DNA of 8,307 bases, from IMG/VR virus record IMGVR_UViG_2740892234_000024. One strand, given 5' to 3'. This DNA comes from a virus. Taxonomy: Duplodnaviria; Heunggongvirae; Uroviricota; Caudoviricetes. How positions within the stretch are numbered: the first letter of the stretch is position 1; each line of letters begins with the position of its first letter. The notes under the pieces were generated by a model. It made no database searches, was not told the DNA's origin, and was given only the letters and a program-made list of their open reading frames with translations. Below are positions 1 to 8,307 of the stretch, in pieces. Position numbers and translations under genes: made by a program.

Positions 1-579
1 TTAGCCGTTAAGTTTAACTGCCAGACCTGCGACATATTCCCCTTGATAACGAGCAATAGACAGTTCTTCCTGGCTTGGCTGGCGTGAGCCGTCACCGCCT
101 GCGATGGTGGTTGCGCCGTACGGCGTACCGCCGCGAACCTGTGAAACGTCAAATAATTCCTGCGCTGCGTAGCCAATGGGGACAATTACCATGCCGTGAT
201 GCGCAAGGGTCGTCCAGGTTGAAGTAATAGTTTGTTCCTGACCGCCGCCAGTACCGGTGGAACTAAAGACGCTCGCCAGTTTTCCGTATAGTGCGCCGGA
301 AGCCCACAGGCCGCCCGTCTGGTCGAGGAAGGTACGCATTTGACCGGACATGTTGCCAAAGCGGGTAGGTGTACCAAAAATAATGGCGTCGTAATCGGCC
401 AGTTCTTGCGGGGTTGCAACCGGTGCAGTTTGCGTTTTACCGCCTGCTTTTTCAAATAATTGCGGCGGCATGGTTTCCGGTACACGCTTAACGACAACTT
501 CTGCGCCATCGACTTTGCTTGCACCCTCAGCGACTGCGCGTGCCATCGTTTCAACATGTCTAAGGATATGGTTTATCAT
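1..579 (-). CDS. wrbA: NAD(P)H:quinone oxidoreductase WrbA, 3-prime portion with a phage-derived start; the native N-terminus is replaced by about 9 different codons (MINHILRHV, then [10 protein letters not shown]... onward matches WrbA as recalled)
   Basis: 192-aa ORF; from [38 protein letters not shown] to the C-terminal AVKLNG it matches E. coli WrbA as I recall it. TAA stop at 1-3. ATG at 579-577 overlaps the int stop (ATGA). Confidence 0.85.
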
Positions 580-580
580 T
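540..580. other. Approximate prophage/chromosome junction (int-proximal att core) inside wrbA
   Basis: WrbA-like translation begins around the codons for ETMA (about nt 540-556); upstream codons diverge from native WrbA and run straight into the int stop. Exact core not determinable without the uninterrupted wrbA allele. Confidence 0.4.
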
Positions 581-1886
581 TTGAAAAATATAATTTTATT
601 TCATCCTCCTGGTCACTTTGGGGCACGTCTGGGGCACGGGCATTAAGGACATTATTCAACATGGCAACTTGAGTCACGCTGCACTCAGGCATCCATGCAC
701 CATAAACATTGTAGACCATGCTGGCGCTGGAGTGCCCCATCTGTGATGCAATAAATGTCGGGTTTGCTCCGGAAGATAAAGCCCAGCACGCATAGGTATG
801 GCGTGACTGATACGCTTTACGGGATCGGATACCCGCTCTTTTTATTGCTGAATCCCATGTCGCTCCGATGGAGCTTACCGCGTAGTTAATACCCGCCTTG
901 TGATTCTTGCGAACGATTTGCGGACAGAAAACAAAAGTGCACTCGTGCAAAATTGTTCTTCCGTACTCGCGTAATTGAACAGTGATCTGATGCTGCCTGC
1001 TAAGACGAGTAAGCATCGCCTGGTTTTTAAGTGCTTCAATTGCTGGTGCCAGAAGATGTATAACCCGGTTAGTGCCTGCGTCGGTCTTTGGTAGCGTAAA
1101 ATCACCTATTTTTGTAAAATTTCGTCGCACTGTTATCGTGCCAGCTTTCAGGTCGATATCCTCCCATGCAAGTGCGGCAATTTCACCGTGTCGCATCCCT
1201 GTAAAAACAGCCACTGTCCAGAGGTTTTTGGTCTGTTGATGATGGCAGGCATCAATGAGACGGCTAAACTCATCTCTGGTCAGTGGATCCGGCACTGGTT
1301 TTGATTTCCTCAGCGGTGTTATTGAATTAAACGGGTTTTTCTCCAGATACCCGTTTTCGGCGGCAAAGCTGAACATTCCGGCTGTTGTTGTCATGTAATA
1401 GTTCACTGTGGGTACGGTTCTTCCTTTTCGGGACGTGCTGGTTTTCCTGCTTCCCTTTTCCCCGGTCAGTAAATCTTTCCTGATAAACAGCAGATCTTCT
1501 TTTGTAATCGATGACGCCAGCCTGCCAGGACCAAGCCTCGGTAGCATATTTTTCATCACTGATTGATAACGATTTAAGGCGTTACTACCGATTTCCATTG
1601 CTTTCAGAGTAAGCCATTTCTGTGCCAGTTCACCGACGGTGATATCTTTTTTTACCAGGCCAAATAGCTTCAGGTTAGGTGAGTCAGGGAATCGATCGGC
1701 ATAATCAAACGTTCCTGTTCTGATTGCAAAGCAGACCGAAGCCCTTAACTCACCAGCGATCTTTCTGTTTTTCGGTGTATCGGGCACGCGAAGATTTTCG
1801 CGCACTCGTTTACCCCTGTACTTAAACGTTATTCGGAGTTTTCCTCCGTGATTTTCAACGCCGGCTGGATAGGCTGAATTCGCCAT
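576..1886 (-). CDS. int: Phage tyrosine integrase (site-specific recombinase)
   Basis: Long ORF next to the att junction with tyrosine-recombinase-type C-terminal region (...[15 protein letters not shown]..., ...[27 protein letters not shown]...). The track start at 1910 is a GTG; the ATG at 1886-1884 (MANSAYPAG...) is preceded by AGGAGG and is preferred. Confidence 0.85.
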
Positions 1887-1938
1887 TGTTCCTCCTGCGT
1901 CCAAGAGCACGCTCAGGTTATACTCTTATGGACAAGAA

Positions 1939-5132: not shown

Positions 5133-5963
5133 TGGTTTCCTCCTTTGCGAATCTGTTCCGCCCATTCTTCAAGGGATTTCTCCGCATATTCACCAGACAG
5201 GCCATCAATCGGATGCGCTTCATTAGCCAACTCTTCTTTCGCTGACAAAATCATGCGTGTAACGTCGAAAACTTCACGCAAAGACTTATTGATAAATCCG
5301 TGATTGAAAGCAGCAGCAAGACGGCTTGCGGTATAGTTAATACCCTCGTTGCGAGCCGCCGCACGAATTTCAGCCAGGAAAGCGTCGGTGGCTGGGGTTT
5401 CCGTGAAGTTGTCCTCCCAACCGTAGTACTCCTGACGACAGAAGTTATTAAATTCCTTCTCCGACTGTTTAAGCTCCGCATTCTCTGCCGCCAGCACCGA
5501 AAACTTCTCGTGTGCCAACTTAACAGCCGCATCAGCCTGCTTAATTNNNNNNNNNNCCGGGTTCTTTAATGTGCAAGCGAGGCTCACCATCTTTTGGCTC
5601 AGGCCACTGGCGCTCCATGTTGATCTTCAATTTATCTTCCATAGCAGCGGTAATTTCAGCATCGCTGATGCCAGCACGGCGCTGTGCATCCCACAACAGA
5701 AACTGCATATCAGCCCACTCGCTAAGATCGTCTGGTTCGGCTGCGGCTTCCAGTGCCTCTTTTGAGAGATGTTTCAGCGGACCAATGGGGCCAACGCAGC
5801 CAAATGTGGAGTCAGACCATTTGGCATGCTCGTGGCGAATCTGTTCGCGTTCCAGTGATGCCAGTGCAATTCGTGCCAGTTCCATTTGTTCGCCACGAGT
5901 AAGTCCGTTATCAAGCGGATTTTTAATGAATAATTTGATACGTTCTTTGGTTATAGCGCTCAT
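5129..5963 (-). CDS. MazG-like NTP pyrophosphohydrolase domain protein (DUF550-type dATP/dGTP pyrophosphohydrolase-like), interrupted by the N-gap at 5547-5556
   Basis: N-terminal part (5557-5963) has the all-alpha MazG-type acidic pattern (EALEAAAE ... EWADMQFLLWDAQRRAGISDAEITAAMEDKLKINMERQW). The C-terminal part (5129-5546) continues after the gap in a shifted frame. Start ATG at 5963 follows GGAGAGTGATATG. Confidence 0.55.
5547..5556. other. Assembly gap (10 N) inside the MazG-like gene
   Basis: Run of N; reading frames on the two sides differ, so the true gap length is unknown. Confidence 0.95.
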
Positions 5964-5988: not shown

Positions 5989-6467
5989 TGTTGCAATGCT
6001 GTTTATGATGCTGTCAGTGCATGGGGTAGAAAGCTGGGCATCTCCAGCAATTCTCATGACCTCAACATCTGCATATCGAATACCGAGGTGTATCAGACCG
6101 GCTATACCTGACTTAAGCCGAGCATTTTCCATAAACAGATCCTTTGCACGCTGTTTTTCTGCCTCAAGCTCAACGCGCAACTTCCCTACCGTTAACGCAA
6201 TATCCTCGTTCTCTTGGTCGCGGCGTTTGATGTATTGCTGGTTTCTTTCCCGTTCATCCAGCNNNNNNNNNNTTGGTCTTCGGCCAGCTCCGCTAAATTA
6301 GCCTCCAGTTCGGCTATGCGTTCGTTTAATGCATCTCGTTCATCCAGTAGCGCCAGCACAACCTGAGGTGTGACTTTCATACGAAATGCCAGCAATTTTT
6401 GAGGCGTTGCTACTGTTTCAATTGCTACTGCCGCCTCACGCAGTGCCTGAGAGTTAATTTCGCTCAC
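5965..6467 (-). CDS. Ea22-like family protein, paralog 2, interrupted by the N-gap at 6263-6272
   Basis: N-terminus MSEINSQALREAA..., coiled-coil segment and C-terminal ...GIRIKGE all match lambda Ea22 as recalled. ATG at 6467 overlaps the TraR-like stop (ATGA). Confidence 0.7.
6161..6262. repeat. About 100-bp repeat, copy B (in Ea22-like paralog 2)
   Basis: See copy A at 4778-4878. Confidence 0.9.
6263..6272. other. Assembly gap (10 N) inside Ea22-like paralog 2
   Basis: Run of N placed at the edge of a roughly 100-bp repeat shared with paralog 1. Confidence 0.95.
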
Positions 6468-6685
6468 TTCGAACCTCTCTGTTTACTGATAAGCTCCAGA
6501 TCCTCCTGGCAACTTGCACAAGTCCGACAACCCTGAACGGCCAGGCGTCTTCGTTCATCTATCGGATCGCCACACTCACAACAATGAGTGGCAGATATAG
6601 CCTGGTGGTTCAGGCGGCGCATTTTTATTGCTGTGTTGCGCTGTAATTCTTCAATTTCTGATGCTGAATCAATGATGTCTGCCAT
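6464..6685 (-). CDS. TraR/DksA-family C4 zinc-finger protein
   Basis: 73-aa ORF with CCECGDPIDERRRLAVQGCRTCASCQ (CxxC-x17-CxxC), the DksA/TraR-type zinc finger. Confidence 0.75.
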   Translation of the reverse strand: MADIIDSASEIEELQRNTAIKMRRLNHQAISATHCCECGDPIDERRRLAVQGCRTCASCQEDLELISKQRGSK

Positions 6686-6728
6686 CTTTCATTAATCCCT
6701 GAATTGTTGGTTAATACGCTTGAGGGTG

Positions 6729-6738
6729 NNNNNNNNNN
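6729..6738. other. Assembly gap (10 N) between the two copies of the TraR-like 5-prime region
   Basis: Run of N flanked by near-identical 188-bp sequences. Confidence 0.95.
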
Positions 6739-6884
6739 ACCAGGCGTCTTCGTTCATCTATGGGATCGCCACACTCACAACAATGAGTGGCGGATATAGT
6801 CTGGTAGTTCAGACGACGCATTTTTATTGCTGTATTGCGCTGTAATTCTTCAATTTCTGATGCTGAATCAATGATGTCCGCCAT
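6739..6884 (-). pseudogene. Partial second copy of the TraR-like gene (N-terminal 48 codons, cut off by the gap)
   Basis: ATG at 6884-6882 opens a frame encoding MADIIDSASEIEELQRNTAIKMRRLN... that runs into the N-run. Confidence 0.5.
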
Positions 6885-6934: not shown

Positions 6935-6960
6935 ATAATAAAAAAGGAGCCTGTAGCTCC
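6935..6960 (-). terminator. Intrinsic terminator for the leftward transcript
   Basis: 5-bp stem (ggagc 6946-6950 / gctcc 6956-6960, loop ctgta) followed on the minus strand by TTTTTTATTAT; lies 23 nt downstream of the stop at 6983. Confidence 0.45.
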
Positions 6961-6982
6961 CTGATGATTTTGCTTTTCATGT

Positions 6983-7198
6983 TCACCGTTCCTTAAAGAC
7001 GCCGTTTAACATGCCGATCGCCAGGCTTAAATGAGTCGGTGTGAATCCCATCAGCGTTACCGTTTCGCGGTGCTTCTTCAGTACGCTACGGCAAATGTCA
7101 TCGACGTTTTTATCCGGAAACTGCTGTCTGGCTTTTTTGATTTCAGAATTAGCCTGACGGGCAATGCTGCGAAGGGCGTTATTATGTTCTATTGTCAT
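6983..7198 (-). CDS. Hypothetical 71-aa protein translationally coupled to the upstream 250-aa gene
   Basis: ATG at 7198 (MTIEHNNALRSIARQ...) preceded by GAGG, 8 nt downstream of the 250-aa gene stop at 7206. The track extension to 7336 overlaps that gene and is not preferred. Confidence 0.6.
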   Translation of the reverse strand: MTIEHNNALRSIARQANSEIKKARQQFPDKNVDDICRSVLKKHRETVTLMGFTPTHLSLAIGMLNGVFKER

Positions 7199-7205
7199 AT
7201 TGGCC

Positions 7206-7958
7206 TCACACTTCGAATGCCAGTTGAGGGGTAAAGACGTCCCGTTCAGCATTGTAATTAAGTGAACTGGCACTGTTGAATGATTCAATGCGTTCCACAA
7301 GAACTTGCGTACGGGTTTCTTTACTTGCGGGAGCATATGGCGAACCTACCCAGGATTTGTCGATGCCTATATTTCTTGCGACGTTCGTGCTGTCTGCAGA
7401 CGAAAGCGGTACATGAGTAAAAATGTCTTTATTTAACATCCGTAACCCATGAATCTTGGTGATTGGGTAGCCGTACTGATCTACAACATGACGTATAAGA
7501 TCGCGTAGTTTAGCCCGACACGCTCTCGGTCGTTTTGCATCGCATTCCCCCATCGAGCCGATGCAGACGCGGGGAAACTCATGGCACAGACGAATAAATC
7601 GCTCATCTGGTTCGTTCATGTGCCACACCGGAGCACCAATAAATTTACCGTGAGGCCATGCCGCAATCAGGGCGTCATTCTCTTCACTGGTTCCGCCGAT
7701 AACATCCGGGATAACCGCGAATGAGAAACGAGGGTGATTACCCCAGCGTTCAACAAATCTGTAATATTTATTCCAGTCTACGGCCTTGTTTTTTGTCCAG
7801 AATGTGAATGCACCATTATCAAGAGCAAATGATTGGGTGACTTCGGAAGCCAGATCAATCTGAGCTGGATTAGCAAAACTGATGAATGCGTGTCTGCCTT
7901 TCCAGGCTTTCAACGCACAGGTATCGGGAGTTATTGGACCACCGTGAAAATGAATCAT
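7206..7958 (-). CDS. 250-aa protein with tRNA-guanine-transglycosylase-like motifs; candidate DpdA-like DNA 7-deazaguanine transglycosylase (hypothesis)
   Basis: Clean ORF with ATG overlapping the upstream stop (ATGA). FALDNGAF resembles the TGT LTDSGGF motif, and SADSTNVARNIG resembles TGT FDCVMPTRNARNG with identical D-x5-R-N spacing. Motifs matched by eye against recalled E. coli Tgt. Confidence 0.7.
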   Translation of the reverse strand: MIHFHGGPITPDTCALKAWKGRHAFISFANPAQIDLASEVTQSFALDNGAFTFWTKNKAVDWNKYYRFVERWGNHPRFSFAVIPDVIGGTSEENDALIAAWPHGKFIGAPVWHMNEPDERFIRLCHEFPRVCIGSMGECDAKRPRACRAKLRDLIRHVVDQYGYPITKIHGLRMLNKDIFTHVPLSSADSTNVARNIGIDKSWVGSPYAPASKETRTQVLVERIESFNSASSLNYNAERDVFTPQLAFEV

Positions 7959-8119
7959 ACACTCTCCCGTTTATTATTTATCTCCTCAGCCAGCCGCTGT
8001 GCTTTCAGGGGATTTCGGGTAACAGAAAGGCCGGGAAATACCCAGCCTCGCTTTGTAACGGAGTAGACGAAAGTGATCGCGCCTACCCGGATATTATCGT
8101 GAGGATGCTTCATCGCCAT
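7955..8119 (-). CDS. Small protein in the lambda orf60a position (immediately downstream of exo)
   Basis: 54-aa ORF ([54 protein letters not shown]); the second Met at 8113 gives ATGA overlap with the exo stop; its own stop overlaps the next ATG (ATGA). Confidence 0.55.
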
Positions 8120-8307
8120 TGCTCCCCAAATACAAAACCAATTTCAGCCAGTGCCTCGTCCATTTTTTCGATGAACTCCGGCACCATCTCGTCAAAACTC
8201 GCCATGTAATTTTCATCCCGCTCAACCACGACATAATGCAGGCCTTCACGCTTCATTCGTGGGTCATAGTTGGCAAAGTACCAGGCATCTTTTCGCGTCA
8301 CCCACAT
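8110..8307 (-). CDS. exo: Lambda-type exonuclease (Red-alpha), 3-prime end only; gene continues beyond the window
   Basis: Translation [65 protein letters not shown] matches the C-terminal 65 residues of lambda Exo as recalled, with a few substitutions. Confidence 0.85.

Follow-up and report, generated by a model that had tools for sequence, protein, structure and literature searches.

A singleton DpdA-family protein in the early left region of a lambdoid prophage, with a proposed role in low-level guanine exchange in phage DNA

A reading frame for a 250-aa protein in the 8,307-nt stretch of phage DNA analysed here (the window) carries two short motifs that resemble the catalytic regions of tRNA-guanine transglycosylases (TGT). 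Is this protein a DpdA, that is, an enzyme of the TGT superfamily acting on DNA, and if so, what would a phage gain from it? An earlier note on this DNA, based on motifs found by eye, had proposed a DNA 7-deazaguanine modification module made of the 250-aa protein and a coupled 71-aa partner. The assignment of the enzyme stands up well to our analysis, and the partner does not.

The window corresponds to the left arm of a prophage of the lambdoid type (Table 1). The two reading frames of the proposed module are both present on the minus strand as claimed, and both were also called by PGAP in E. coli 2013C-3264, in a copy that is 100% identical. The DpdA gene had been placed just downstream of exo, but orf60a intervenes, and its stop overlaps the start of the DpdA gene (ATGA). 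The exo gene itself is truncated by the window edge. At the other end, a spacer of 7 nt (GGCCAAT) separates the DpdA stop from orf61, the ATG of which begins at the 8th base, in agreement with the distance of 8 nt given earlier. A Shine-Dalgarno-like GAGG overlaps the stop codon of the DpdA gene. Among the window ORFs scanned no que or folE genes are found, so the remark that preQ0 synthesis genes are missing here holds. A promoter scan near the DpdA gene gives nothing above the shuffled expectation, and there is no evidence of a separate moron promoter for this gene. A Mom-like gene shares the window with the DpdA gene.

Table 1. Positions of the features in the window and of the motifs within the 250-aa protein
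Feature	Position	Strand	Remarks
Lambda-type exo, 3' end	8110-8307	-	exonuclease annotated at the matching position in SfI, VT2-Sakai and lambda
orf60a/DUF1317	7955-8119	-	Pfam PF07026, E 2.8e-33; SfI and E. coli annotations
DpdA-family gene	7206-7958	-	250 aa, 753 bp; homologue of TGT-superfamily DNA-guanine transglycosylases, 'singleton' clade
FALDNGAF motif	residues 44-51; 7806-7829	-	contains D47 (putative acid/base) and F51 (putative base-stacking)
SADSTNVARNIG motif	residues 187-198; 7365-7400	-	contains the putative nucleophile D189 and the invariant S190
Putative catalytic residues	D47 (7818-7820), D85, H113, H170, D189 (7392-7394)
Cassette replacing orf63 and a small hydrophobic ORF	about 7181-7955		MAFFT alignment, megablast
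Orf61 homologue	6983-7198	-	71 aa; exo-xis block; phrog_303
Terminator-like hairpin and T-run just 3' of orf61	6944-6962	-	consensus match only; kept in VT2-Sakai
Two DksA/TraR-like ORFs (orf73-like), several Ead/Ea22-like ORFs	beyond the hairpin on the minus-strand reading
Mom-like ORF, DUF551 ORF, excisionase, integrase (576-1910)	beyond the Ead/Ea22-like ORFs
ORF presumably resembling the 3' part of wrbA	1-579

The 250-aa protein can be assigned with high confidence to the phage DpdA family within the TGT superfamily, and the similarity that had been proposed by eye is well beyond chance. The protein matches PHROG 887 ('queuine tRNA-ribosyltransferase') with an E value of 4.5e-98. A profile of 58 diverse relatives (the A2 profile, 31-90% identity to the query) is aligned by hhalign with the DpdA of phage 9g over 152 columns covering residues 40-196, with a probability of 98.2% and an E value of 2.7e-14. 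In tblastn searches the protein is 36.6% identical to the DpdA of Salmonella phage 7-11 (gp032, E 1e-27) and 37.6% identical to that of HK106 (YP_007151699). The AlphaFold2 model (pLDDT 81.4, pTM 0.82) contains eight beta/alpha units, and the predicted fold is consistent with the TGT-type (beta/alpha)8 barrel that the earlier note had suggested looking for. A Foldseek search of the viral BFVD library returns 27 matches with E<1e-3, and the annotated ones are nearly all phage 'queuine tRNA-ribosyltransferases'. One BFVD match is an uncharacterised protein of Vibrio phage nt-1.

Direct HMM and sequence searches with the 250-aa protein against Pfam, NCBIfam, PADLOC and PDB sequences find no match. 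In particular, the Pfam model PF01702, which had been proposed as a check, does not match it at E<=10, while E. coli Tgt, run as a control, scores 560 bits. The PADLOC DpdA model does not match it either. The Pfam check is thus negative but misleading: the validated 9g DpdA likewise has no Pfam TGT match, and its PADLOC DpdA match is marginal, so that the missing matches are no argument against membership. The family profile was also searched against PDB sequences and found GCN4 coiled-coil matches only, which we reject as spurious. The zinc site is to be read in the same way. E. coli Tgt has its site at C302-x-C-xx-C, and the 250-aa protein contains no CxCxxC motif, with just 61 residues following D189. 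Both this site and the large Ins8 insertion, which are features of TGT and of bacterial DpdA (bDpdA), are equally absent from the 9g and 7-11 DpdA proteins, and their lack therefore does not argue against the phage family.

Both motifs seen by eye, FALDNGAF and SADSTNVARNIG, prove to be conserved catalytic motifs, and the counterparts that had been quoted for Tgt do occur in the E. coli enzyme as LTDSGGF (D89) and FDCVMPTRNARNG (D264). D47, H170, D189 and S190 are present in 58 of the 58 relatives, and an aromatic residue at position 51, D85 and H113 are each found in 57. D47, F51, H170 and D189 align with D72, F76, H196 and D215 of the 9g DpdA, and the distance between the two aspartates is 142 residues here (D47-D189) and 143 residues in 9g. 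In the AlphaFold2 model, strand beta3 is predicted to end at D47 and strand beta8 at D189. In bDpdA the acid/base is D95, the nucleophile D256 and the stacking residue F99 (PMC10164549). D47, F51 and D189 would correspond to these, and the spacing D47-x3-F51 equals that of D95 and F99. H113 is probably the equivalent of bDpdA H181. H170 corresponds to 9g H196, which has been cited as the histidine typical of DpdA (Hutinet 2019, PMC6884629), and to H226 of Cap10, where it forms a pair with D248. The assignment of D85 is less certain. It lies in an IPDV motif after the predicted beta4 and is probably equivalent to the base-recognition residue D130 of bDpdA and to D143 of Tgt, although the alignments pair it with no Asp of the 9g DpdA.

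Purifying selection on the gene is strong. Over six orthologue pairs pN is 0.10-0.15 and pS is 0.82-0.92; these are raw values, given because synonymous sites are saturated and the NG86 dS is undefined. The isoelectric points of the relatives range from 5.6 to 9.0, and charge is thus uninformative on DNA binding.

This gene is already known as a catalogued phage 'singleton' DpdA, published in 2019. Its product is 99.2% identical to gp34 of Shigella/Enterobacteria phage SfI (YP_009147480), which RefSeq names 'queuine tRNA-ribosyltransferase', and the DNA of SfI and of Escherichia phage PhiR5_1 matches at about 98-99% identity. Between the window protein and SfI gp34 there is essentially no difference. 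The window copy lies, as we take it, in a different prophage from SfI, beside wrbA. SfI (YP_009147480) and HK106 (YP_007151699) are both entered as DpdA-only phages in Supplementary Data 1 of Hutinet et al. 2019 (PMC6884629). This DpdA-only 'third group' is the largest, with 76 of 182 viruses, and the gamma-proteobacterial singletons form a cluster of their own in the similarity network (Hutinet 2019, PMC6884629). A lone DpdA gene in a phage is therefore not the unusual arrangement for which it had been taken, nor is it new.

The family is large: clustering at 90% identity gives more than 6,000 clusters and clustering at 50% identity gives 869, and members occur in 111 phage records. The singleton clade spans temperate phages of Enterobacterales, Vibrio, Aeromonas and beyond. 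At >=99% identity the allele is found in 100 of 5,426 complete E. coli genomes (about 2%), and all 100 copies are annotated by PGAP as 'hypothetical protein'. The carriers include pathogenic E. coli strains with lambdoid or Stx-type prophages. A further copy, also identical, is located near dsdC/torI. Viral RefSeq and PHROGs do name the gene, but with the wrong substrate. We found no paper in the literature testing a lambdoid or P22-like DpdA, and the DpdA gene goes unmentioned in the paper on the BTP1 transcriptome.

A comparison with known systems places the window protein among the smallest forms. SfI gp34, HK106, 7-11 gp032 and the window protein share a minimal length of about 234-250 aa, the motifs LDNGAF, IPDVI, VWH, IHGLR and SADS, and the absence of que genes from the phage. 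Chemical data within this set (trace dADG) exist solely for 7-11, a virulent 90-kb phage and not a lambdoid prophage. The singletons tested so far have given trace dADG or nothing. DpdA1 of 9g/CAjan has the LDxGAF acid/base motif, the DpdA histidine and the nucleophile as in the window protein; like the window protein, the 9g DpdA lacks CxCxxC and fails the Pfam TGT model. The identity between them is just about 19-20%, and the 9g protein is extended by roughly 45 residues at the N-terminus and roughly 60 at the C-terminus. [quoted passage not shown] The bacterial DpdA of S. Montevideo (PDB 7UI4) is a TIM barrel with the catalytic layout predicted for the window protein: one Asp ends beta3, another follows beta4, the nucleophile Asp ends beta8, and a D-x3-F motif provides the stacking. 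Features of bDpdA that the window protein lacks are the Ins8 subdomain, the CxCx2Cx22H zinc site, the DpdB ATPase partner and the dpd cluster.

The gene neighbourhoods of relatives were compared over 41 loci, from phages and from bacterial genomes (35 loci). No que or folE gene occurs within +/-3.5 kb of any of the 41. No conserved partner gene is found in these loci, only antisense shadow ORFs and neighbours of low frequency, the commonest real ones being DUF1317 (8 of 41) and a DksA-like gene (6 of 41). The surroundings of the DpdA gene differ between Eeyore, BTP1, Vibrio phage D105 and 7-11. A metagenomic relative (P0248, L048:2840-3847) is fused to a QueD/PTPS domain, and its contig has no further que genes. 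Another relative (P0240, L049:6001-7266) is a fusion with a D12-class Dam methylase; it lies in a prophage, and the genes around it have Pfam domains of the P2/186 type. An MT-A70 DNA methylase adjoins the DpdA gene in 5 of the 41 loci, and in Pseudomonas phage Epa33 a C5-cytosine methylase follows it directly. The fusions, each from a single contig, the methylase neighbours and the Mom-like gene of the window are hints towards DNA modification and the deazaguanine pathway.

We therefore consider a model in which the protein would exchange G for 7-deazaguanine in phage DNA at low level and in dependence on host preQ0. As a whole we give this model a probability of about 0.6; its fold, family and conserved residues come from the present analysis and its chemistry is taken from TGT and bDpdA. 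The protein would be a minimal DpdA of the singleton clade, travelling without preQ0-synthesis genes. Transcribed early from pL as in lambda, it would be made during lytic growth, which we infer from its position in the pL-transcribed exo-xis block and from the lack of a convincing promoter of its own. [quoted passage not shown] D85 and H113 would read the edge of the base, F51 would stack on it, and H170 would position the nucleophile. Guanine would then leave and a host-made 7-deazaguanine would enter. The incoming base would probably be preQ0 from E. coli FolE, QueD, QueE and QueC, and may end as ADG; dependence on the host is the natural reading because no preQ0 genes accompany the DpdA gene. 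Orf61, encoded downstream, belongs to the lambdoid backbone and is a regulator-like protein with no relation to DpdA.

Data on related enzymes suggest how much modification such an enzyme could reach. When the 9g DpdA alone is expressed in E. coli, dPreQ0 appears in plasmid DNA at 0.03-0.3% of G from host preQ0 (PMC6884629). Phage 7-11, which has DpdA only, contains dADG at about 0.02% of G, and in the DNA of the singleton phage Orion no 7-deazaguanine was found (Hutinet 2019, PMC6884629). By analogy with these relatives, about 0.02-0.3% of G may be modified in the present phage. For a lambdoid genome this comes to anything from a handful of sites to about 100, probably located at a sequence motif. 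In the next host, DNA packaged in this state would have partial protection from restriction enzymes or from other defences that target DNA. This partial protection is the least certain part of the model.

Two other uses of the same active site are unlikely but have to be weighed. In one, the scaffold would be repurposed: the TGT active site is kept, but no protective 7-deazaguanine DNA is made. The protein could then bind or transfer a deazaguanine on a partner other than DNA, like Cap10 with the NDG-modified CD-NTase, or it could counter host chemistry of the QueC/TGT type, as in type IV CBASS and QatABCD. Cap10 of type IV CBASS (PDB 9NTN) is indeed the best structural match and the closest solved structure. 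The likeness is structural only, with no link at the sequence level, and neither CD-NTase nor Cap9 is found at the window gene or at the 41 loci. Moreover, Cap10 binds a protein-linked deazaguanine in a defence operon, whereas the window gene stands in the early left operon of a phage.

In the other, to which we give the same small chance, the protein would be a DNA glycosylase or base-exchange enzyme with another outcome. It might remove guanine or a modified base from the DNA, or else put in preQ1, CDG or some other purine analogue in place of preQ0. Its purpose could be damage to host DNA, the erasure of host marks, or a regulatory or packaging signal set at few sites. The flexibility of a relative speaks for it, as DpdA2 of VH7D inserts preQ1, preQ0 or CDG depending on the pool, and so does the finding of dADG rather than dPreQ0 in 7-11 DNA. 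The expected level of modification is also too low for broad protection against restriction. However, the singleton clade offers no positive evidence for such an outcome, the acid/base D47 and the putative base-reading pair of D85 and H113 are retained, as they are in exchange enzymes, and the DNA methylase neighbours fit a protective modification. It is similarly improbable, in our estimate, that the singleton clade as a whole (about 250 aa, no Zn domain, no que genes) has a distinct job other than bulk anti-restriction; such a job could be the marking of few sites, the insertion of a base other than preQ0, or a Cap10-like countermeasure against type IV CBASS or QatABCD.

It is very unlikely that the protein is a true tRNA-guanine transglycosylase which alters the queuosine status of host tRNA during infection. 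What favours this is the database name together with membership in the TGT superfamily, and the name is carried over from remote homology. PF01702, the model on which E. coli Tgt scores so highly, does not match the protein; the CxCxxC zinc site and the tRNA-binding insertion are missing in the short stretch after the nucleophile, and the related 9g DpdA fails to complement delta-tgt.

The 71-aa reading frame had been described as having no recognisable family. It matches phrog_303 with an E value of 1e-34 and is Orf61 of the exo-xis block, a lambdoid backbone gene and not a partner of DpdA. It overlies H0081 of VT2-Sakai, annotated as 'similar to lambda Orf61', and represents the core of the 93-aa Orf61 of Phi24B and 933W. 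[quoted passage not shown] The window shares orf60a, orf61, the orf73-like and the ea22-like genes of this block with lambda and the Stx phages in canonical order, but it has DpdA instead of orf63, and its orf73-like gene is a tandem duplicate. In a MAFFT alignment of the window, lambda and VT2-Sakai, the DNA is nearly identical from exo through orf60a and remains so as far as the DpdA start codon. Homology returns at codon 7 of orf61, and the non-homologous stretch in lambda and VT2-Sakai holds orf63 and a small hydrophobic ORF. In agreement with this, most lambdoid phages match only the two flanks in megablast (49% cover, 2 pieces). Since orf63 stands in lambda and VT2-Sakai where DpdA stands here, the DpdA gene is a cassette that has replaced it.

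Least probable of all is a two-gene module with the 71-aa protein as dedicated partner: the short same-strand spacer, the GAGG over the DpdA stop and the homeodomain-like DNA binder predicted in the literature would fit it, but the coupling is one of physical proximity only, and as a conserved arrangement the module is refuted, with an Orf61-like neighbour in just 4 of the 41 loci (the contexts in Eeyore, BTP1, the Vibrio phages and 7-11 being different), Orf61 at 91-94% identity in about 170 lambdoid and Stx phage records that have no DpdA (434, 21 and Phi24B included), and a recombination junction at the start of orf61 that makes the adjacency a by-product of the cassette swap.

Low-level exchange of guanine for a host-made 7-deazaguanine is thus the reading that we prefer. 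The identification in itself adds little, as the family, the singleton status and the presence in SfI and HK106 were all published in 2019. Of practical use is that the label 'hypothetical protein' given by PGAP persists in about 100 complete E. coli genomes. For the question of what DpdA-only phages gain from this gene, the lambdoid clade is the best available genetic system, with inducible lambdoid prophages, hosts compatible with E. coli K-12 and que mutants at hand. Host glycosylases attack DNA that contains dPreQ0, which puts a cost on heavy modification (bioRxiv 10.1101/2025.10.29.685425), so that sparse modification may be a trade-off between evading restriction and being recognised.

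The annotation of the DpdA gene is inconsistent between sources. It is called 'hypothetical protein' by PGAP in all 100 E. coli genomes carrying it, whereas viral RefSeq and PHROG-based annotations name it 'queuine tRNA-ribosyltransferase', which is the wrong substrate for a DpdA. An identical copy of the allele is found in strain 2013C-3264, in another prophage than that of the window, near dsdC/torI. Disrupted copies are also observed: in Yersinia similis two ORFs stand in place of one intact DpdA-like gene (L032:5001-5756), and in Paraferrimonas (locus L023) the gene is truncated. These two copies look like occasional pseudogenes in a DpdA-like family that is otherwise well conserved.

Two fusions are found, each in one contig only. 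The DpdA-like domain forms a single ORF with QueD/PTPS in a JGI metagenome contig (L048:2840-3847). The second single-ORF fusion (L049:6001-7266) joins it to a D12-class Dam methylase and belongs to a prophage in which the adjoining genes carry the P2/186-type Pfam domains Phage_GPA and Phage_186_Fil. DNA methyltransferases are also encoded next to DpdA-like genes. An MT-A70 methylase directly adjoins the gene in 5 of the 41 loci compared (L013:5758-6423 and four others), and a 697-aa C5-cytosine methylase does so in Pseudomonas phage Epa33 (L050:7740-9830).

Features of the window outside the DpdA gene and orf61
Feature	Position	Strand	Remarks
Left-end ORF	1-579	-	abuts the tyrosine integrase
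Tyrosine integrase	576-1910	-	Arm-DNA-bind_2 domain
Mom-like ORF, 164 aa	4048-4542	-	phrog_1384, Pfam PF25680
DksA/TraR-type zinc-finger ORF (orf73-like), first of tandem pair	6464-6685	-	
DksA/TraR-type zinc-finger ORF (orf73-like), second of tandem pair	6711-6884	-	

In the poly-A run of orf61, the lambda reference (NC_001416; L047 1540-1725) has one A more than the window (6983-7198) and VT2-Sakai, and because of this extra A lambda Orf61 is annotated shorter and frame-shifted. A truncated appearance of lambda Orf61 has been noted in the literature, and the observation is consistent with it. The tandem orf73-like ORFs have near-identical N-termini, and the second is broken by a masked N run at 6729-6738. 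Ead/Ea22-like ORFs contain two more such runs, at 5547-5556 and at 6263-6272.

At the left end of the window, the ORF next to the integrase is presumably wrbA with its N-terminus replaced. Since this wrbA-like ORF abuts the tyrosine integrase, the arrangement suggests that the prophage may be integrated in wrbA. wrbA is the integration site of Stx2 phages such as 933W/Sakai.

The Mom-like ORF matches phrog_1384, 'Mom-like DNA modification protein', with an E-value of 1.4e-43, and its score against the Pfam Mom family is 24.2 bits, slightly under the cut-off of 27.1 bits. With it, the early-left region that houses the DpdA gene would have another candidate gene for DNA modification (anti-restriction), the second one there.
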